Origin: Promethearchaeota archaeon
GTDB lineage: Archaea; Asgardarchaeota; Lokiarchaeia; Sigyniarchaeales; SOKP01
DNA: 14,782 nt
Reading direction: 5' to 3'
Assembly: GCA_016840165.1 (NCBI GenBank)
Contig: JAEOSU010000078.1
Coordinates: 1 to 14,782, forward strand
Part shown: in pieces, positions 4,831 to 14,782 of the stretch
Numbering within the stretch: the stretch's first letter is position 1
Layout of the letters: each line of letters begins with the position of its first letter
Program-made: the position numbers and the translations under genes
Notes under the pieces: model-generated
Database searches by the model: none
The model's input: the letters and a program-made list of their open reading frames with translations, nothing else
What the model was told of the DNA's origin: nothing

Positions 4831-6876
4831 TTAGCTCTCAAATAAACCTAAATTCGGATCTAAAAATTGATTTTGACACATAGGACACGAATTGTATCTT
4901 GAAAGCCAATCAGCTACGCAAAGATAATGGTAAGTACTTCCACAGAAAGGACAAGTTATGACTTGATTCCTGCTAAAATCAATATTTTTATGACATACCG
5001 TACACTGAACATTAGACGCAGAAACTCCTGCCCTTATTTTAACCTTATTAGATAAAATTTCATCTAGTTTAGCTTTTTCGACTTGATATAATCCTAAACT
5101 TGTATTCAATTGATTGATTTTCGCTTCAATTTCACCGATTCGTTCTTTTAATTCTCCTTCTGTCAATCTTTCAGCAAGAAATGCTGATAATGCGAAATTA
5201 AAAGGTAAACCCTCGAAATTTTCAGCTTGTTTAGTAATCTCAGTAATCTCAGCGAATAGAATTGATTCTTCATCAATTAAATCTTTAAAACTTCTGAAGA
5301 TTTTATTAACTAGGATAGACAACAAGAATGTAACCTGTTGCTTTTTTCGATTGAAATTTTTTTCCCAATAACGAATGATATTATACATATCAACATTACT
5401 GTCTTTATACTTACCAAGTGCATTATACACATCTTCTTTAATGACCTCAATTTGTTGCTTATAATTTTTAATAATATCTCTTACCTTTCGTAATTGAGGT
5501 AACTCCTCCCTTATAATTAAAGAAGTTTCATCTTCATACGAACTAATAATTTTATTTACTTGGGAAAGTTTCTTATCTACTAAATTCCTAACTTCTATTC
5601 GTAGACTTTCATCTTTTATACTCATCAAATAATTTGCATATTCTTCCTTTCTACGATAAATCTCAGAGCTCAGACTTGATAACGTTTTCTTTAACGAATT
5701 AGTAATATTTTCATAGGGTTTTAGAAACTTATCGAAACTCAATAACCAAGAATCAAATTTATCAATAAGCGCTGATAATAAATCGATTTTACTATAAAAA
5801 GTATCAATAATCTTTACAAATTCATCCGTTTCTTTGTCATCAACGGTGCTAATCATAGATTGAAATTTTTTATCTAATCCATTGAAATATAGATTAACGA
5901 TTTTAGAAAGAAGATCAGTAAATTTTTCCTTTAATAGAGCCTCTCTGTTGAATTTTCCCTTCTGTTGAGTCTCATCTATACCATATTCCTTATCTAATTC
6001 GCTAATTTCTTTTAAAATAACATTGAAATTTTCGCTAATATATGACAAAATAAATGATTTCATTTCATTTTTAAGAGATTTGATAACCTCTTTTCGCTCT
6101 AAGACATTAATAAACTCCTCTTCTTTCTCGAATTCTTCAAAAAACTCTTTTTTATACAAGAAATAGATTATATCATGATAAAAATCTAATTTTTGCTTTT
6201 CTTTACTAAGTATAAATTGATATAACTCATCAAAATGAAAAGAATAGGTTTGTTCTTTTTTCAATTTTGTTTTTCTTTTACTATCTGCCTCAACTAGACT
6301 AATGAGAAATACATTTAATGCTTTAATTTCTTCCCATAGTAATAAATCATTTGGTATTTTGTTTAATTTAAAGTTTAAATTTTTAACTTTATTTGCTCTT
6401 ATCCATATCTCTCTTTCATTTTTATATTCTTTTTCAATTGGAGCAAGATTTTTCTTCAAATCTGGTAGAATATCATTAATATCATTTGTAATCTTTTTTG
6501 CCAATATAATATAATTATTCAGAAACGAATTTTGCTTTAAATGGCGCTTAATACTGCCAGCATTAGAGATAAGGTTTCCTAAATTACGTGATATAAAGTT
6601 TAATTCCTCGATAATATCTGATTTAAGAATTATATAATTTTCTTTCGGAATATCTATTAGATATTGTTGGATAAATGAAATTATTTCAAGCACATAATTT
6701 GAATATTCGTCGAGAAGATGAAAGCGAAACTTATTCTCAAGATAGTCCTTCAGTTCGGTTGATTTTTCAGTTTGTGATTGGATATTTGAGATCTCCTCCT
6801 TGGTTTTAAGTATTTCTGACTTATTATATGCCTTTAACTCTCTAATATTATCAAACTTATTATCAAAAAAAAGCAT
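4831..6876 (-). CDS. Large helical/coiled-coil protein with C-terminal C4HC3 RING-type zinc finger (candidate E3 ubiquitin ligase)
   Basis: 681 aa, mostly K/E/L-rich helical sequence. Residues 625-667 (nt 5004-4876) read C-x2-C-x13-C-x2-C-x4-H-x2-C-x3-W-x6-CPMC. An SD-like GGTG lies 7 nt upstream of ATG 6876. Confidence 0.85.
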   Translation of the reverse strand: MLFFDNKFDNIRELKAYNKSEILKTKEEISNIQSQTEKSTELKDYLENKFRFHLLDEYSNYVLEIISFIQQYLIDIPKENYIILKSDIIEELNFISRNLGNLISNAGSIKRHLKQNSFLNNYIILAKKITNDINDILPDLKKNLAPIEKEYKNEREIWIRANKVKNLNFKLNKIPNDLLLWEEIKALNVFLISLVEADSKRKTKLKKEQTYSFHFDELYQFILSKEKQKLDFYHDIIYFLYKKEFFEEFEKEEEFINVLERKEVIKSLKNEMKSFILSYISENFNVILKEISELDKEYGIDETQQKGKFNREALLKEKFTDLLSKIVNLYFNGLDKKFQSMISTVDDKETDEFVKIIDTFYSKIDLLSALIDKFDSWLLSFDKFLKPYENITNSLKKTLSSLSSEIYRRKEEYANYLMSIKDESLRIEVRNLVDKKLSQVNKIISSYEDETSLIIREELPQLRKVRDIIKNYKQQIEVIKEDVYNALGKYKDSNVDMYNIIRYWEKNFNRKKQQVTFLLSILVNKIFRSFKDLIDEESILFAEITEITKQAENFEGLPFNFALSAFLAERLTEGELKERIGEIEAKINQLNTSLGLYQVEKAKLDEILSNKVKIRAGVSASNVQCTVCHKNIDFSRNQVITCPFCGSTYHYLCVADWLSRYNSCPMCQNQFLDPNLGLFES

Positions 6877-7016: not shown

Positions 7017-7634
7017 CTACTCTCCTAATTCATCAATCTCAATATGTTTCTCTTTTGCCCCATCTTTGGTTATAATAAGAAGATCAATTCCATTCCCTGT
7101 CATTGCATCACGTTTTATAGCATTTCTGATGGTTTTTTCCACTAACTGAGTTCCCTCTTCAATGGTCAAATTAGGTTTATATTCTGCTTCTAAAATTCCG
7201 ACTGACATTAACATACCAGTACCCGTAACGCCATAATCATCAGGGATAAGAGAACCAATTGCATCTAAAGAATATAGCTTCGGTCCATCCTCATCTACAC
7301 CTGCAACAACAATATTAGTATATAAGGGAGCCATTTTTCGGGAATAAAGAAAGTTGGAAATTAATTTTGCCAAACTTTTTGTTGTTATCCTCTGTCCAGC
7401 ATCTAATTGATAGAGGTTTGCTTGAGCTCTCATAATCCTTACCAGAATCTGAAAATCGCCAATAAGACCATATGCAGCAAGTCCGATATGATCGGTTATT
7501 TTAAATACTTTTTGCGTCGATTTATTTGTTACTGTATATCCCCAAGTCGCTCTTCTGTCGTTGCCCAAAATAACGCCATCTTTACATTTAATGGCAACTC
7601 CGACTGCTCCTGGAACCATAATTTCTTGAGACAT
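7017..7634 (-). CDS. psmB: 20S proteasome beta subunit, non-catalytic type (Thr1 replaced by Ala)
   Basis: Ntn-hydrolase/proteasome beta motifs: KDGVIL.ND.RAT.G, KVFKITDHIG..YG..GD.Q.L, VAGVD..GP.LYS.D..GS, TGTG and RDAMTGNG. The usual G-TTT reads G-AVG. Confidence 0.95.
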   Translation of the reverse strand: MSQEIMVPGAVGVAIKCKDGVILGNDRRATWGYTVTNKSTQKVFKITDHIGLAAYGLIGDFQILVRIMRAQANLYQLDAGQRITTKSLAKLISNFLYSRKMAPLYTNIVVAGVDEDGPKLYSLDAIGSLIPDDYGVTGTGMLMSVGILEAEYKPNLTIEEGTQLVEKTIRNAIKRDAMTGNGIDLLIITKDGAKEKHIEIDELGE

Positions 7635-7702
7635 TTTCTGTACCTTTTAAAAATTAAAAAATTGATTATTTTAACTTAATAGTTATAAGAAAATGAGAAT
7701 TA

Positions 7703-7716
7703 ATTAAAATTTTTGT
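7703..7716 (-). promoter_or_regulatory. Putative BRE/TATA element ACAAAAATTTTAAT upstream of psmB
   Basis: The same motif as at 6932-6946 with one fewer A, about 68 nt upstream of ATG 7634. Confidence 0.4.
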
Positions 7717-7861
7717 TTTAAATTATAAAAGACTGTGAATCGGTAATCATCATCAAATATTTCAGAACATACAAAATCCTGAAAAATACAATAATATCAT
7801 CTGTTAATAAAAGCTTCTTATAATAGCTATTTATTTTATGATAAAATGTAAGAGCTTAAAC

Positions 7862-7886
7862 TTTTAAATATAGCTATCTATATTTA
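7862..7886 (+). promoter_or_regulatory. Putative TATA box (TTTTAAATA) overlapped by a 9-4-9 inverted repeat upstream of the LRR cluster
   Basis: TAAATATAG (7865-7873), spacer CTAT, then CTATATTTA (7878-7886). The arms are perfect and lie 50-70 nt upstream of ATG 7935. Confidence 0.4.
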
Positions 7887-7934
7887 TCTCTATCGAAAGA
7901 CATCAAATTATAACTTCTTCATGGTAAAACACTC

Positions 7935-10900
7935 ATGGATTATAATTTTCATATGCGGCAAGGTCAGATAAAATTTAAGAATGGCAATTATCGAGAAGCT
8001 ATAAAAGAGTTTAAGCAAGCCCTTAATTATAAATTAGAAGACACAGTAGCATGGGTTTTCCTCTCAAATACATACTCAAGTTTACAAGAATATGATAATA
8101 TGCTTGAATCTATGAGAAATATTATTAAGTATAATCCTAAAATAAAAGACGAAAACGATATGTTCTATGCTCTTCCTCCAATTGCAAAAAATATTAATAA
8201 AATTATAGAATTATGTACAAATGCTATAAAGAATCCAGCTGAATTTAAGGGAGAATGGTCATTAGTTGGAAGTTATTTTTTAACTAAAAAAGAATATAAT
8301 AGAGCAGAAATAGCTTATCTAGAAGCTATAAAGCAACATCCGGAGATACCCCTAGCAAAGCTATCCTTAGCTTCTGTCTATTTTAAGAATGAAAAACTTG
8401 AAGAAGCGCTTGAGTTAACTGACAATGTGGTTAAAGCTTTTCCTCATCTTTTACATGCCATAATAATGAAAGCAAAAATATTAGCAAAAATGGAAGAAAT
8501 TGATCAAGCCATTTTCTTTTGTGATATGGCACTAAAAGAGGATCCATTATTAGAACCAGCAGTTACTCTTCGGTTGGAGTTAGAAAAAAAGCAAGGGAAA
8601 TCAACAATAAATAACCTAAACCCTATGGAAATTTATGAGAATGTCGAAGTTAGAAGGGATCAAAAAGATTTTTTATTAGAATTAGAAAAATTAAATAAAA
8701 GAACCATTAAACCATTAGCTTGGGCTGAAATGGAATTATCAACGCTTTCTGGGTTTGTCGTGAGAGCAGGGTATATAACAGAATTAAATTTAACCTTTAT
8801 AGATAAAATTCCTCCTTCTATAAGAAACTTGAAGTATTTAAAATCGCTTTTAATACCGCATAGGATGGATCCTAAAGGATTTCCTGATGGTGTTGAGGAT
8901 CTTCAAAATCTTGAATTCCTTTTATACCAAAATTCACTAACAACTCCGGGAATTTTTCGAGGAGTAAATCCAGAAGCCAGATATCTTACTAATAAAATCT
9001 GCAAGTTAAAATCGTTAAAAGTACTAAATATACGGGATTCTTATGGCATTACACATTTACCAAAATGCTTGGCAGATCTCCCTCACTTAGAAGAAATTAA
9101 TGTGGGGAATTGCCATATACTCAACCATATCCCTGATGAAATTAAGGTTCAATTCAAACCAATAGGTGACGACTTCCGTCTCAAGTTGATTCGCAGAACT
9201 CCCAATTATAAAAATCCAAATCAAGGTTGGGAAGGCTCCAAATTTATTGTGATACATGAAAATGAACCTTTGATTGAGGAAGAAACAAATATTTACATTG
9301 ATGTTCCGGAATTACATCCAAAAGAACTAATAGTCCTTAATGAATTATTGAGAAATATGTATACTAAAGAAGAATTAACTCAAATGGGAAAAAATCTTAA
9401 ACAAATGCCTTCAATGATGAATAAGCAATATATTAAAAAGCTGGGGCCAATATATACAAGTAGAGATGGGTATATAAGGGAATTGACTTTAAATAGGATT
9501 CGAGCAGAAGAAAGTCTTCCAGAAAGCATTCTTTCTTTAAGTATGCTTGAAAAATTAGTAATTACTCCCTCACACCGGCATATATCTATACCAGACAATA
9601 TTGGAGTCTTAACTAATCTAAAAGAATTGGAAATTCATAATATAATTAAAATCCCCAAAACTCTTAATGAGCTTAAGAATCTTGAAAAACTGACTATTTC
9701 AAGCAAAGTTCCACTTCAAGATTTGTCAGGATTAACTAGATTACGAGAATTAAAATTGACATTACCGGAGACAGGTAATTTAAATGGTTTAGAAACTCTT
9801 CATTCCCTTAATTCCTTAACACTTTATAATCCAAGTAAAGAACTACTATTACAAATTTCTAAAATTCCAAAACTTGAGAATCTAGAACTATATTATATCA
9901 AATCTAATGAAATTCCTGAGAGTTTAGGAAAACTTAAATCTCTTAAAAGTTTAAAGATAAGTAATAGTCCTAAGTTGGAAAAGCTTCCTAAAAGCTTGGA
10001 AAATCTCTGTAATCTACAAACCTTAATAATAAATTACTGTTCATTAAGTCAATTTTCTATCTCTATTAATCATCTGCCAGCATTGCGTATCCTTTCCTTA
10101 AATAGTTGTAAATTAATGACTTTACCTTCGGGTATTAGTTATTTAGAAAAAGAAATTGATATTGATATTGATAATAATCCATTAGACCCTAATATAATCC
10201 TATGTGATCTTAATAAAGATTTGATTGATAAAGAAGAAGCAATCAATCAACTAAGTTTTATTATTAATAAATGGGAGATTAATAAACCCGATCGCTGCAA
10301 TCAAGAAGATCCTCATCATAATCCTGATAATGTTAAACGTGAAGCGATTAAGGCTCTTCTTAATATAGCAAACATGAAGAATATAGAGGAACCCTTAAAT
10401 AATCATTTAAAACAGATATTAGAAGAAATTATTTGTCATAAGGATCCAAAGCTTAGATCGTTTATACTTACGAACTTAACAGACCTTCTCCCCTCATATC
10501 TCGAAGATGCTTTGCAGATACTTATTACTAGTGAAATTAGTCATTTAAACTTAAAAAAAGTATATTATCTTCTCAAATACCAAATACAAAATAAAGAACT
10601 TCTCAAAAGACTCTTGATTCGTTTATCAAGGGCGTTTCGTGTCATACCTTACGAAGCTGGAACTCTATTTGAATTATGGTCTATCTTAACGATAAAAGAT
10701 CATACTATAATGTTTGATGAAGCTGCTTATTATTCACTGGCATTTCCTACGGTCCAAGATCTGAAAGAAGTAGGATTTGGTTATGTAGCAGATGATGATC
10801 ATGTCGTTGGACTTTCACTTAAGGGTTTTGGTTTACAATATTTACCAGAATCTATTAAAGACTTTAAAAAACTCCAATATTTAGAATTACAAGACAATAA

Positions 10901-12056
10901 TATTTCAGAACTTCCTTTATGGATCGGAGAAATGCAATTTATTATAAATTTAAACCTTAAAAGAAACAATATATCTTCATTACCATCCAATATTTCCGAA
11001 CTAAGGAAAAAAATTAAAATCAATCTCTCTCAAAATCCTATTAGTAGGATATATGAAGAAGATTTTAAAAAATATTACGAGAACTACATTAATAGTTCTC
11101 ATATTCATGAAAATGATGCTAAAGTCTTGAGTTTGATATCATATATATTTGGGAAACAATTATCAATGTTTTGGAAAGAAGAAGCAGATTATTTAGAAAA
11201 TAAAGTTAATTCTTTCGTATTAGATGAGGGTGGAAGGGTAATATCTCTTATTCTGCACGATTTTAATCAATCCAAGATTACTTACTTTCCTGAAGAAATC
11301 TTTAATTTAGAAAAACTTGAAAAATTGGAAATATCTAAAAGTTATACTCTTAATAATTATTCTGAGAATATTCAAACTCTAAAGAATCTTACCTACCTTA
11401 ACCTTAAAGATAATAATTTACAAATTTTTCCTGAATGGATTACAAAAATAACATCCTTGAAAGAATTAATTCTTTCGGGAAATTCCATACAAGAGATCCC
11501 CAATTCTATTAAAAATTTAAAAAATTTAACTCTTTTAGATCTAAGTTATAATTCATTATCGAAAATTCCCTTAGTTATATTCGAAATGGAAAATCTATCA
11601 ATTTTATCCTTAATGGGAAATGAAATTGAAGTTATTGATGATTCAATTGAAAACATGAAAAACCTGAAAGAATTATATCTCGGAAATAATAATTTGAAGA
11701 AGTTACCTGAAACAATAAGTTTGTTAGAATCATTAGAAAACCTGAGTATATCTTATAATGAACTAACTAATTTACCTAATTACTTAGGAAATTTACGCAA
11801 TTTAAAAAATTTAAACGTTTCAGGGAACAAATTATCTAACCTACCTCCAAATTTCTGTTCATTGACAGCATTAGAAAATTTAGATTTAAGCGATAATCAA
11901 TTTAAATCGATATCCGACTGTATTGCCGACATCCCTAACCTAGAACGCTTGAACCTAAGTTATAATGAAATGGATGCGCCTTCACCCGTATTAAATTCTG
12001 TTCGAGGAATTATTTTTAAAAGAAAACGTAATCCTGAATATGATTATACGTTTTAA
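7935..12056 (+). CDS. Multidomain TPR + leucine-rich-repeat protein (N-terminal TPRs, four LRR modules, internal HEAT-like helical region)
   Basis: Residues 1 to ~215 show TPR patterns (GNYREAIKEFKQALNY, EYNRAEIAYLEAIKQHP, LEEALELTDNVVKAFP, IDQAIFFCDMALKEDP). There are many LxxLxLxxN repeats, including ten regular ~23-aa repeats at the C-terminus. I saw no Walker A/GTPase motif and no transmembrane segment. Confidence 0.92.
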   Translation: MDYNFHMRQGQIKFKNGNYREAIKEFKQALNYKLEDTVAWVFLSNTYSSLQEYDNMLESMRNIIKYNPKIKDENDMFYALPPIAKNINKIIELCTNAIKNPAEFKGEWSLVGSYFLTKKEYNRAEIAYLEAIKQHPEIPLAKLSLASVYFKNEKLEEALELTDNVVKAFPHLLHAIIMKAKILAKMEEIDQAIFFCDMALKEDPLLEPAVTLRLELEKKQGKSTINNLNPMEIYENVEVRRDQKDFLLELEKLNKRTIKPLAWAEMELSTLSGFVVRAGYITELNLTFIDKIPPSIRNLKYLKSLLIPHRMDPKGFPDGVEDLQNLEFLLYQNSLTTPGIFRGVNPEARYLTNKICKLKSLKVLNIRDSYGITHLPKCLADLPHLEEINVGNCHILNHIPDEIKVQFKPIGDDFRLKLIRRTPNYKNPNQGWEGSKFIVIHENEPLIEEETNIYIDVPELHPKELIVLNELLRNMYTKEELTQMGKNLKQMPSMMNKQYIKKLGPIYTSRDGYIRELTLNRIRAEESLPESILSLSMLEKLVITPSHRHISIPDNIGVLTNLKELEIHNIIKIPKTLNELKNLEKLTISSKVPLQDLSGLTRLRELKLTLPETGNLNGLETLHSLNSLTLYNPSKELLLQISKIPKLENLELYYIKSNEIPESLGKLKSLKSLKISNSPKLEKLPKSLENLCNLQTLIINYCSLSQFSISINHLPALRILSLNSCKLMTLPSGISYLEKEIDIDIDNNPLDPNIILCDLNKDLIDKEEAINQLSFIINKWEINKPDRCNQEDPHHNPDNVKREAIKALLNIANMKNIEEPLNNHLKQILEEIICHKDPKLRSFILTNLTDLLPSYLEDALQILITSEISHLNLKKVYYLLKYQIQNKELLKRLLIRLSRAFRVIPYEAGTLFELWSILTIKDHTIMFDEAAYYSLAFPTVQDLKEVGFGYVADDDHVVGLSLKGFGLQYLPESIKDFKKLQYLELQDNNISELPLWIGEMQFIINLNLKRNNISSLPSNISELRKKIKINLSQNPISRIYEEDFKKYYENYINSSHIHENDAKVLSLISYIFGKQLSMFWKEEADYLENKVNSFVLDEGGRVISLILHDFNQSKITYFPEEIFNLEKLEKLEISKSYTLNNYSENIQTLKNLTYLNLKDNNLQIFPEWITKITSLKELILSGNSIQEIPNSIKNLKNLTLLDLSYNSLSKIPLVIFEMENLSILSLMGNEIEVIDDSIENMKNLKELYLGNNNLKKLPETISLLESLENLSISYNELTNLPNYLGNLRNLKNLNVSGNKLSNLPPNFCSLTALENLDLSDNQFKSISDCIADIPNLERLNLSYNEMDAPSPVLNSVRGIIFKRKRNPEYDYTF

Positions 12057-13458
12057 AAATGAGGTGTGCAAATTGAGATTAAAAATATATAATCCTGATC
12101 TAGTAGATTGTTCTTCAAGTGTGAATATGTTAATGCCTAGCCCAGAATCTATGGGGATGATTGTGAATTTATTCTGGGAGATCATTAAATCAAATGCTGT
12201 GGAATCAATATTGTCCCATTCTTTTAAGTTAGAATTTGATAGTGGTGTTTTTGTATTAATTTCACCAGAAGGACGAACTCATGGTTCTTTAAACATTCAT
12301 ATGGAAGGAATATATCCTCTAAAAAACCTTAATTTAAGATCAAGTGATGCAGATCGTGAGAACAAAATTTATGGTTGTTTTATTGAATCTATCGAAAGTG
12401 TTTTTAAAAGAGATAATTTTGAAGAAAGAGTAGATTATTATGATCAAATCAGTCAGATATTGGTTAATGAAGCTGGCTTAAGGGGTGTAAAAAAAGGAAT
12501 TGCATTAATCCAAGCAATTCTAGGTAGTGCATATAGATTGATTCCGAAGATAATTCAAGAGCAAGAACTACTTAATTTTGAACTAAATGCTCGAATTATT
12601 TGGAAAGCATGGTCTTCATACTATGAGATCCCGGGAATTGGTCATGTTCAATGTGGAGAAATAGATCATATAAGCGCAAGCACTAATAACATGGAATTTT
12701 ATCTCGGAGATCTATGTTTAGGGGGTCATAATGGTCGTTCTGAGGGAGATAAGCATTTTGCAGATATTCAAAAAGCTATTAATAACGTTTATCCTAAATA
12801 TACCATTAAAGAAGTTGGTGATAGCTCTTCTGAAATTGATGGACGAATAGCATTATATAATAAATCTTTAGCCGAAGAAAGGTTTAATCTTGAACCCAAA
12901 GGAATACTTTTCGGTAAACCTATTAATCAAGAAGAAAAAGTAAATTTACTTAATATATTTAGTGATTCCAAATTTCACCCATATTGTATCAAACTTCATG
13001 ATAATCATGTAATATCTTTAACTATTGACAATCCAGAAGTAGACTCATTATTTTCTTATCTGAGAGAGTTGCATTATCTGACAGATTTAATCATTAATAA
13101 TCTCCCTCCTATTGAAAAATTAGATTTTAAAACCTTAAAAAGTCTTAAATCTTTAATATTAAGAAATTGTCATGAAGTCCATGCTATAACAGATTCATTA
13201 GCGGGTCTAGAAACTATAAAAATTCTACATTCTAATAGAATAACAAGCTTACCTAAAACATTTGGGAAACTAACGCACCTCAAAAGAATTGAAGTGATTG
13301 GTTGTGAACGATTAAATTCATTTCCAATTGAAATGAGGGAATTAAATATTTCAACACTCAAAGTTATATATTCTCCCTTGCTAACAGAAGCTAATATTAA
13401 TAATAATATAGAGAAATGCAAAAATTATTTCAATAAATTCTTTTCTAAAAAACGGTGA
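12040..13458 (+). CDS. Protein with unknown N-terminal alpha/beta domain and C-terminal LRR module; likely true start TTG at 12073
   Basis: C-terminal LRRs (LHYLTDLIINN, LKSLKSLILRNC, LTHLKRIEVIGC) are preceded by the same cap motif as in the upstream gene (DNHVISLTI). The SD-like GAGGTG at 12061-12066 sits 6 nt before an in-frame TTG at 12073. Confidence 0.8.
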   Translation: MIIRFKNEVCKLRLKIYNPDLVDCSSSVNMLMPSPESMGMIVNLFWEIIKSNAVESILSHSFKLEFDSGVFVLISPEGRTHGSLNIHMEGIYPLKNLNLRSSDADRENKIYGCFIESIESVFKRDNFEERVDYYDQISQILVNEAGLRGVKKGIALIQAILGSAYRLIPKIIQEQELLNFELNARIIWKAWSSYYEIPGIGHVQCGEIDHISASTNNMEFYLGDLCLGGHNGRSEGDKHFADIQKAINNVYPKYTIKEVGDSSSEIDGRIALYNKSLAEERFNLEPKGILFGKPINQEEKVNLLNIFSDSKFHPYCIKLHDNHVISLTIDNPEVDSLFSYLRELHYLTDLIINNLPPIEKLDFKTLKSLKSLILRNCHEVHAITDSLAGLETIKILHSNRITSLPKTFGKLTHLKRIEVIGCERLNSFPIEMRELNISTLKVIYSPLLTEANINNNIEKCKNYFNKFFSKKR

Positions 13459-14213
13459 ATTACATGGAAAAATCAATGCTACAAATCATAAATTATCCTC
13501 CTAAATTTCCCAAATCAGTTCACCTTTATATTACAAATGCATGCAATTTAAACTGTGTAAAGTGCCATTATAGAAACTCAGATGATGAACTCGTTCACTT
13601 AAAATTTGAGAAATTAAAGAAACTTTTCTATGAGTGGAAATACTATGGTTTAACTTCCATTGCTATCGGAGGAGGAGAACCCTTAATGCATCCAAAAATT
13701 ATCGAGATTGTAAAATTGGGCAGATTATTTGGATTCCACATGGCGGTCACCACAAACGGAACCCATTTATTACCAATCAATGCTCATCGAATCCATATCT
13801 CATATGACAAAATTCACCCTACATGGAAAGATGAATCTCTGATAAGAAGAGCAATACATTTTTACAAAGGATTAGGATCTAAGGTTGGTATTAATCATAT
13901 TGTCTCGAGTTTAGATTCAATTAGATATATTGATTTTGCATTTCCAGAAATCGACACTTTATTGCTCATACGGGAAAAACCTGTGTCTAAATTTAATGAT
14001 TGGGAATCAATTCCTCGTAAAAGAAAATATTGGATAGAAGGTTGTATTGAACATGGTCATTGCGAACAAGGAATATTAAGTTTTCATCTTGGACCAACGT
14101 TAGAAACATCAATTTGTTCGAATATTAAAGAAACAATTAAATATACATCTTTAGAAAAAACTTGGAAAGAGTTAATAAAAGTGAAATGTCCGATTAGAGA
14201 TGCTCAATGTTAA
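13455..14213 (+). CDS. Short radical SAM enzyme with Cys-rich (twitch/SPASM-like) C-terminus
   Basis: CNLNCVKC (CxxxCxxC), GGGEP, TTNG and five C-terminal Cys (GC.EHGHC..G...ICS...CP...C). The GTG start overlaps the upstream TGA stop (GTGA); alternative ATG starts lie just downstream. Confidence 0.92.
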   Translation: MNYMEKSMLQIINYPPKFPKSVHLYITNACNLNCVKCHYRNSDDELVHLKFEKLKKLFYEWKYYGLTSIAIGGGEPLMHPKIIEIVKLGRLFGFHMAVTTNGTHLLPINAHRIHISYDKIHPTWKDESLIRRAIHFYKGLGSKVGINHIVSSLDSIRYIDFAFPEIDTLLLIREKPVSKFNDWESIPRKRKYWIEGCIEHGHCEQGILSFHLGPTLETSICSNIKETIKYTSLEKTWKELIKVKCPIRDAQC

Positions 14214-14227
14214 TTTTTTCGTTTTTT
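14214..14227 (+). terminator. Oligo-T archaeal-type terminator after the radical SAM gene
   Basis: TTTTTTCGTTTTTT directly follows the TAA stop at 14213. Confidence 0.5.
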
Positions 14228-14468
14228 GAAATATAATAAGAAAGAATCCGTATTAATTCTTTAAAAAGCTTATATGTAGTAAAATTTTCCGTGAGTTTTC
14301 AATGAGGATTGAAAATTTACTATCCATAAGCTCTGTTTTTGATAAGAATATTATGATAATGATGAAATATAAAGAGTTTTAATTCTATAATCATTAAGCA
14401 TTCAATTTTCACTAAAATTAATTATGTACTTAAAATGATTATTTAATCCTCTTCATCATGCATCTTCA

Positions 14469-14717: not shown

Positions 14718-14782
14718 ACCAATAAATCATTCAATAATATCCTTTAATATTAATAATGATTTTTTGTCGTAATTTTTTATGC

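Follow-up and report, generated by a model that had tools for sequence, protein, structure and literature searches.

Contig JAEOSU010000078.1 of a Lokiarchaeial genome, Promethearchaeota archaeon (assembly GCA_016840165.1; G000:C61 in our numbering), was analysed over its entire 14,782 bp, up to position 14782; this stretch, hereafter the window, has a G+C content of approximately 29% and carries an operon of three genes on the forward strand. The first gene encodes a large protein of tetratricopeptide repeats (TPR) and leucine-rich repeats (LRR), the second a protein with a C-terminal LRR behind a domain that we designate X, and the third a very small radical S-adenosylmethionine (SAM) enzyme, designated R (Table 1). 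A first-pass annotation, made from the DNA letters without database searches, had read the trio as a recognise-and-respond module with two LRR sensors and an enzymatic effector. Our analysis places X and R at its centre, and suggests that they form an undescribed enzyme–substrate pair and not a recognised immune system.

Table 1 Coordinates of the features discussed (positions without a locus prefix are those of the window)
Feature	Coordinates	Strand	Details
TPR+LRR scaffold protein (P0001), 1373 aa	7935..12056	+	TPR at residues ~1-220, four 'cap+LRR' blocks, helical middle part
X-LRR protein (P0002), 472 aa from ATG 12040	12040..13458	+	X domain at residues ~12-270; LRR at residues ~320-440 (nt ~12997-13360)
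Codons for Asp23-Cys24, X motif [VI]-D-C-[ST]	12106..12111	+	candidate site acted on by R
R, small radical SAM enzyme (P0003), 252 aa from GTG 13455, 249 aa from ATG 13464	13455..14213	+	Radical_SAM
Upstream intergenic region, exactly 300 bp	7635..7934	+	one TATA-like TTTAAATA at 7863-7870
TAA stop, then T6-CG-T6	14211..14228	+	direct sequence read
X homologues without an R partner	L116:5045-6076, L117:4944-5975, L119:1834-2511, L115:5131-5322		
Features cited as examples on non-Loki contigs	L055:4141-7161, L053:10894-11646, L059:11789-12421, L059:1947-2864		

Organization of the operon

The open reading frame (ORF) listing gives three co-directional genes that overlap or nearly touch, as the first-pass annotation had stated, and the 300-bp upstream region and the oligo-T tract past the last gene are likewise as it described them. 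The TAA stop codon of the first gene ends at 12056, and the second gene either begins at the ATG at 12040, overlapping the first by 17 nt, or at an in-frame TTG at 12073, leaving a gap of 16 nt. We favour the TTG as the probable true start, because the N-termini of X homologues read M-[KR]-x-[FL]-K-I-Y-N. The second junction is a GTGA, in which the GTG at 13455 overlaps the TGA stop at 13456-13458; the database entry for R is the shorter, 249-residue form. A promoter in the upstream region can only be presumed, because the TATA-like motif is no more frequent here than expected by chance in AT-rich DNA. The oligo-T letters that follow the R gene would serve as a termination signal of the archaeal type.

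R is a minimal radical SAM enzyme

R belongs to the radical SAM superfamily (PF04055, E = 7e-12, 46 bits against a cut-off of 29.5) and is modelled as a radical SAM barrel. Its CxxxCxxC motif occupies residues 30-37 (nt 13542-13565), with C30, C34 and C37 invariant, and a GGGEP motif at residues 72-76 is also invariant. The tail of approximately 55 residues contains four further invariant cysteines (197, 203, 221 and 245; nt 14043-14189) around a predicted hairpin, in a spacing, C-x5-C-x17-C-x23-C, that is particular to R. These cysteines and the strands of the predicted model (209-212 and 217-219) fit the twitch pattern, a shortened C-terminal domain whose 3-4 Cys around a β-hairpin bind one auxiliary cluster, and R probably holds one auxiliary Fe-S cluster of this kind. 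Membership of the SPASM group was rejected, as that motif requires seven cysteines, binding two auxiliary clusters, and R has four. A Pfam search gave no match to a RiPP recognition element (RRE; RiPP, a peptide made by ribosomes and modified post-translationally), and only approximately 20-29 residues lie ahead of the cluster motif.

Known families describe R only in part. All NCBIfam matches are confined to its first ~100 residues and lie far under their cut-offs, the best being a tungsten-cofactor maturase (55 bits against 380); the best partial hidden Markov model (HMM) matches also include MoaA, BlsE and viperin. The viperin model NF038283 scores 48.2 bits against a cut-off of 180 and covers only residues 20-112, and the PADLOC pVip profile is matched over positions 2-88 of 257, in the core. 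With a score under the cut-off and partial coverage, R was not placed among the viperins. The R family comprises approximately 50 proteins at 40-81% identity, after which there is a gap to generic radical SAM matches at E = 1e-5; scanning IMG/VR with the R alignment retrieved no relatives.

The AlphaFold2 (AF2) model of R has a predicted local distance difference test score (pLDDT) of 86, and its closest fold neighbours are effectively tied: SuiB (Z = 21.4), viperin (20.1), PqqE (19.8), BlsE (19.1), and SkfB and MoaA (18.9 each). More distant are anSME (anaerobic sulfatase-maturating enzyme; Z = 15.9-16.1), BtrN (14.5) and PflA (12.0-12.1). The neighbours include SPASM and twitch enzymes that modify peptides or proteins, namely SuiB, PqqE, SkfB, EpeE and anSME.

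X is a small family without an assignable fold

Residues 1-300 of the X-LRR protein, which contain the X domain, have no match in Pfam, NCBIfam or PADLOC, and the LRR is matched weakly by Pfam at residues 326-437. A full HMM search of 1.84 billion proteins defines a family of 60 representatives; among 38 aligned members, no Pfam family was found except in the fused LRRs, and a profile search of the PDB gave 0 matches at E ≤ 10. The predicted AF2 structure of X is confident (pLDDT 82, pTM 0.80), yet has no convincing structural neighbour. A wide VIA-align search peaked at Z = 5.9 with a CdiI immunity protein, under the usual noise level; the ESM Atlas returned just unnamed clusters with scores of ≤0.90, a recognition under the reliable level; and nothing among the viral structures of BFVD fell below E = 0.07. 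Fold, PDB profile and Pfam searches found no recognisable nucleotide-binding or catalytic fold.

Several specific assignments were tried and found no support. X lacks the RVxG[FWY] loop expected if R were a PflA-like activase of a glycyl radical enzyme, its invariant glycines instead lying in P-G-L-x-G before a helix. A PD-(D/E)xK nuclease is not indicated, as the acidic and Lys catalytic residues of such enzymes are not conserved (G-E-x-D-x-I is confined to the closest relatives, and only Ile211 is near-invariant across the family), and no restriction-endonuclease fold stood out in the fold searches. An N-terminal nucleophile (Ntn) or proteasome-like fold, with its four αββα layers, was not confirmed by VIA-align, by hhalign or by the PDB profile search.

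The X–R pair is the conserved unit

The close relatives of the locus are Promethearchaeota (Lokiarchaeia) genomes. Of 153 further genomes of the order, 6 have an R orthologue, and X lies directly 5′ of R in all six; among 400 Asgard genomes the count is 8, the source genome included. X itself occurs in 12 of 154 genomes of the order, with R adjoining in 7 of the 12. Scans of species genomes and metagenomes, in which pairing was scored with X and R HMMs and BLAST clustering, added approximately 40 loci. X is upstream of R in approximately 35 loci, mostly at a distance of -14 to +46 nt, the other loci being cut by contig ends. In the R tree, a Loki clade is joined by two clades with 40-44% identity and an outer one with 29-33%, and X is kept in all four. 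Each locus has one R with one to three X paralogues, in the order X-X-R or X-R-X. Judged by gene order, then, the conserved unit is the X–R pair, not the three-gene set. The operon proposed in the first-pass annotation holds as a conserved and tightly coupled arrangement, in that the order of the three genes recurs, and its invariant core is narrower than proposed, being X and R.

Genomic context differs between the clades. The non-Loki X–R clades reside on contigs of 46-56% G+C with many small co-directional genes, most of them without a family match, and these contigs also encode a TrwB/T4CP-like ATPase, a transposase, an MNT-type nucleotidyltransferase and a second radical SAM gene. R clades at 40-44% or 29-33% identity are absent among 185,579 species genomes. 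Gene content and this absence together lead us to infer that the non-Loki pairs sit on mobile elements or in unbinned hosts; PHROGs profiles run on the neighbours in distant clades matched a transposase and generic radical SAM proteins only. In clade B2 (L051-L059), paralogues of approximately 200 aa without a family match flank X–R on both sides (for example, L053:5109-5756 and L053:7169-7759) and are preceded by a conserved 270-aa protein, suggesting that the pair there is part of a larger conserved operon. By hhalign, neither the flanking 'Y' proteins of clade B nor the ORF downstream of R in L044 are related to X. In the two loci whose flanks were checked, L028 and L029, the flanking genes are of the housekeeping kind (glutamine synthetase, glutamate synthase, GT87, esterase and M48 peptidase), and give no defence-island context, one of the points that the first-pass annotation had suggested checking.

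TPR and LRR proteins are optional partners in Lokiarchaeia

Pfam and NCBIfam find TPR and LRR families alone in the first protein of the operon, and no nucleoside triphosphatase (NTPase) or enzymatic domain; as the X-LRR protein adds only its LRR, the earlier statement that the operon has no STAND ATPase is borne out, and the central NACHT or NB-ARC NTPase of NLR-type sensors is absent. Full-length orthologues of the TPR-LRR protein, at 29-37% identity, lie directly 5′ of X–R in L021/L027 and L020/L026. The TPR head has true orthologues, at E = 1e-36 or better, in two genomes only, G108 and G052, in both cases at X–R loci, the remaining matches being generic TPR. Within the Loki clade, approximately 13 loci extend far enough upstream for the comparison, and 6 of them have a big TPR-LRR gene immediately 5′ of X; five of the six have junctions of +1, +30 or -17 nt, and L042 has a gap of 564 nt. 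The loci that bear it are scattered over the R tree, which is poorly resolved.

LRRs have also joined X directly. The LRR fused to X is short and irregular in the window protein, in L027, and in P0059 and P0060; in P0075 it is long and canonical, through a fusion that is probably independent, so that such fusions probably arose twice. In L029, a small LRR gene lies downstream of X–R. Upstream of the LRR of the X-LRR protein and of each LRR block of the TPR-LRR protein (window 8658-13458), a similar 'cap' segment ends in a G-[FY]-x-V/L...L-x-L strand. The LRR of the X-LRR protein shows an alignment (32% over 84 aa) to the TPR-LRR orthologue in L021, at its second LRR block, which suggests that LRR cassettes have been shuffled between the first and second genes.

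As far as locus comparison can tell, the LRR and TPR parts are dedicated but optional partners of X–R, and the LRR parts are a lineage-specific addition to a core that is mostly found without any LRR. This departs from an immune module of two LRR sensors and an effector as first proposed. The association itself is not accidental: the first-pass annotation had held that radical SAM orthologues never linked to LRR genes would indicate chance adjacency, and the link instead recurs in related genomes and on metagenome contigs.

An Asp-Cys motif in a probably flexible tail of X

The segment of X at residues 13-27 is its most conserved part, with a mean column conservation of 0.58 against 0.28-0.47 elsewhere, and the Asp-Cys within it is invariant in all 26 motif-bearing rows of the alignment. 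In the otherwise confident AF2 model, the same segment has a pLDDT of 55-64. A tail that is conserved and yet modelled with low confidence is typical of one that becomes ordered only on a partner.

The motif follows the presence of R. All 36 X copies adjacent to R, those of the distant clades included, keep [VIL]DC[ST], whereas intact X proteins without R in the locus or genome have lost the cysteine: in L117 the stretch is VVD-S-SS, and the segment is missing from L116 and L119. Two further orphan copies are broken fragments, and the L115 fragment (63 aa) retains Asp-Cys. X is also the faster partner, evolving approximately twice as fast as R: identity has a median of 31% for X and 67% for R, and X is the lower in 55 of 55 locus pairs. 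One R alongside several X paralogues is the pattern of a single maturase that serves multiple substrates. In 17 loci, the 500 nt upstream and 800 nt downstream of X–R contain no conserved small ORF, which leaves the pair without a peptide precursor of the RiPP type; without an RRE in R or an adjacent short precursor gene, a RiPP radical SAM maturase was rejected.

A proposed maturase–substrate model

One R for several X, the faster evolution of X, its conserved tail, the loss of the cysteine where R is missing and the lack of a short ORF are together best fitted by a maturase and its substrate, and R suits the role of maturase of a neighbouring protein better than that of a free-standing effector. 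We give about an even chance to the proposal that X and R are an enzyme–substrate pair in which R is a protein maturase acting on the flexible N-terminal tail of X. The proposal builds on the observed X–R linkage, the phyletic pattern, the motifs and the fusions. X, a protein of approximately 250 aa without an assignable fold, and R, a minimal radical SAM enzyme, make up a conserved two-gene module that in the source lineage gained LRR scaffolds, in the form of a C-terminal LRR on X and a dedicated 1373-aa TPR+LRR protein just 5′ of it. In the model, R would abstract a hydrogen atom at or beside the invariant Asp-Cys and turn the cysteine into another group, such as a formylglycine-type aldehyde or a thioether cross-link; held on partner proteins by the LRR and TPR scaffolds, X would then be active in its modified form.

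Several points weigh against this proposal. The orphan X copies represent only approximately two independent lineages. R has neither an RRE nor the full seven-cysteine SPASM motif, and in fold it is no nearer to peptide maturases than to viperin, BlsE and MoaA, which are small-molecule enzymes. The X motif does not match the target of anSME. The same pattern of joint loss would arise if Asp-Cys were a catalytic or metal-binding element of X that needs a substrate supplied by R, and the modified residue and the reaction named above are guesses.

Comparison with known radical SAM and LRR systems

The combination matches no family or defence-system library searched, in agreement with the first-pass annotation, which had recognised no described system in it. 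Among radical SAM enzymes, anSME and its sulfatase offer a parallel, as the target of that RRE-less enzyme is a single Cys (or Ser) close to the N-terminus of a protein of full size; anSME is a fold neighbour of R and a PDB profile match (E = 4e-4). However, anSMEs are approximately 370 aa long, and their SPASM domain is complete, with two auxiliary clusters, in contrast to the 252 aa and four C-terminal cysteines of R; their target is C/S-x-P/A-x-R, where X has [VI]-D-C-[ST]-[STA]; and X has no sulfatase domain (no Pfam match). Lacking the SPASM motif, the substrate motif and the sulfatase domain, R was not placed among the anSMEs.

CrpC of Methanococcus voltae is an archaeal radical SAM enzyme that modifies cysteine in a whole protein, CrpA, of the same cluster (PMC13692751). 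This is an experimental precedent for R acting on X, in that a whole-protein substrate is encoded beside an archaeal radical SAM enzyme. Besides an RRE, CrpC carries a SPASM domain and a total of three clusters, and its substrate CrpA is rich in cysteine and acquires several ranthionine cross-links (PMC13692751), whereas X has one conserved cysteine and R has no RRE. The twitch-type enzymes BtrN, SkfB, MoaA and SpeY resemble R in being small and in having, past the core barrel, a single site for an auxiliary cluster (putative in R), with a β-hairpin between C-terminal cysteines; they differ in being only 12-19% identical to R and in lacking its cysteine spacing, and BtrN, MoaA and SpeY act on small molecules. 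Viperins share the radical SAM core and superpose well on R, and the partial PADLOC match is to pVip; beyond the low score, they differ in partner, that of R being an obligate X and not a kinase.

On the LRR side, the effectors IpaH/SspH (NEL ligases), XopL and XopAC likewise join an LRR to a separate functional domain, and the LRR parts of the operon match the XopL, XopAE and XopAC models, in the LRR only and far under the cut-offs. These effectors carry the LRR N-terminally, whereas in the X-LRR protein it is C-terminal, and X is unrelated to the NEL, XL-box and Fic domains.

Other genes of the window

The window also encodes a gelsolin, a RING protein and a proteasome beta-like subunit. The last (7017-7634, reverse strand; PF00227, E = 2e-52) begins M-S-Q-E-I-M-V-P-G|A-V-G-V and has alanine at the position expected for the catalytic Thr1, so it may be an inactive subunit. 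Downstream of it lies the RING gene (4831-6876, reverse strand), whose product of 681 aa ends in a RING finger at the C-terminus (zf-RING_2, E = 1e-6). No match to the proteasome-like gene was found next to the operon in related loci, where it is thus not conserved.

Alternative explanations

X and R could instead serve a small-molecule pathway, either as two enzymes or as enzyme plus binding protein; examples would be a viperin-like nucleotide modification or a cofactor or metabolite step. Cys24 would then be a catalytic residue or ligand; we take this reading seriously without thinking it likely. R superposes on viperin as well as on any maturase (root mean square deviation (rmsd) 2.5 Å over 211 residues), with BlsE and MoaA equally close; the same three are among its best partial HMM matches, it has no RRE, and the joint loss of Cys24 and R is also expected if X depends on an R product. 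Set against this, those HMM matches end within the first ~100 residues, far under the cut-offs, and viperin is not known to have the four invariant C-terminal cysteines of R. Multiple X per R, an X that evolves twice as fast and a motif in a disordered tail would be odd for a partner enzyme, and X has no recognisable nucleotide-binding or catalytic fold. It is highly improbable that X is a very divergent self-processing hydrolase of the Ntn type, cutting Asp|Cys to expose an N-terminal nucleophile, with R in a separate or regulatory role. Asparaginase-type Ntn enzymes process at Asp|Thr, and Cys24 lies just ahead of the first strand of the X model. The approximately 50 best Foldseek matches in the PDB are all 20S proteasome subunits (E = 0.004-0.1), and weak BFVD matches include GlmS, whose N-terminal domain has an Ntn fold. 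The Foldseek matches, however, have a template-modelling (TM) score of ~0.1 and an rmsd of ~20 Å; VIA-align gives proteasome and Anbu just Z = 2.4-2.9 over 58-74 residues, and its wide search lists no proteasome; and the hhalign probability is 0.1% against both the window proteasome subunit and a GATase (Ntn amidotransferase) domain.

That the trio is a cytoplasmic immune or conflict system, with LRR and TPR sensors and R (with X) as effector, we judge improbable, although such a role is compatible with the maturase–substrate model. The patchy spread of R and X among Asgard genomes and genomes of the order favours it, as do the differing genomic contexts of the module, the occurrence of distant clades on ORFan-rich contigs of ~50% G+C with mobile-element-like genes, and the recurrent link of X–R to LRR and TPR proteins, which are recognition scaffolds. 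Yet PADLOC (PADLOC-DB 2.0), a check proposed in the first-pass annotation, gives nothing for the first two genes and only the partial pVip core match for the third; Pfam finds no NTPase, nuclease, TIR or other known effector domain in the operon or in X proteins; most X–R loci have no LRR; there is no IMG/VR match; and the flanks of L028 and L029 are housekeeping genes. With no defence-island context, PADLOC match or NTPase found, a function in immunity lacks support. In a survey of Asgard defence systems, radical SAM comes up only in the titles of viperin references, and LRR only where bacterial NLRs are defined (PMC11291487). Chance adjacency of unrelated genes, to which we assign practically no probability, would draw on the LRR richness of Lokiarchaeial genomes, the 3.6-Mb source genome having approximately 20 ORFs that match LRR_8. 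It is refuted, because the same three-gene order recurs in other genomes and metagenome contigs and in two genera, with overlapping or near-touching junctions at 29-37% identity for the TPR-LRR protein and 55-62% for R; moreover, TPR-LRR orthologues are found at X–R loci only, and X-LRR fusions exist.

Discussion

Protein-modifying radical SAM enzymes are few, and each has revealed new chemistry, including formylglycine, protein thioethers and the methylated residues of methyl-coenzyme M reductase (MCR). Here, a very small radical SAM enzyme is tied to an unannotated protein family through an invariant Asp-Cys tail. The repeated recruitment of LRR and TPR proteins in Lokiarchaeia, together with the mobile-element-like relatives, singles out the pair as a candidate for an Asgard archaeal function, as yet undescribed, linked to recognition or conflict. 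The fullest version of this idea, in which a new kind of post-translational protein modification has an RRE-less R turn the Asp-Cys tail of X, itself of a new fold, into a reactive or cross-linked group, and the module spread on mobile elements and was wired by TPR and LRR proteins in Lokiarchaeia into an NTPase-free recognise-and-respond complex for conflict or immunity, is in our estimate a rather doubtful one. Even if its recognition or conflict part fails, two orphan families would gain a function; if it is true, an NTPase-free recognise-and-respond complex would operate in the closest archaeal relatives of eukaryotes.

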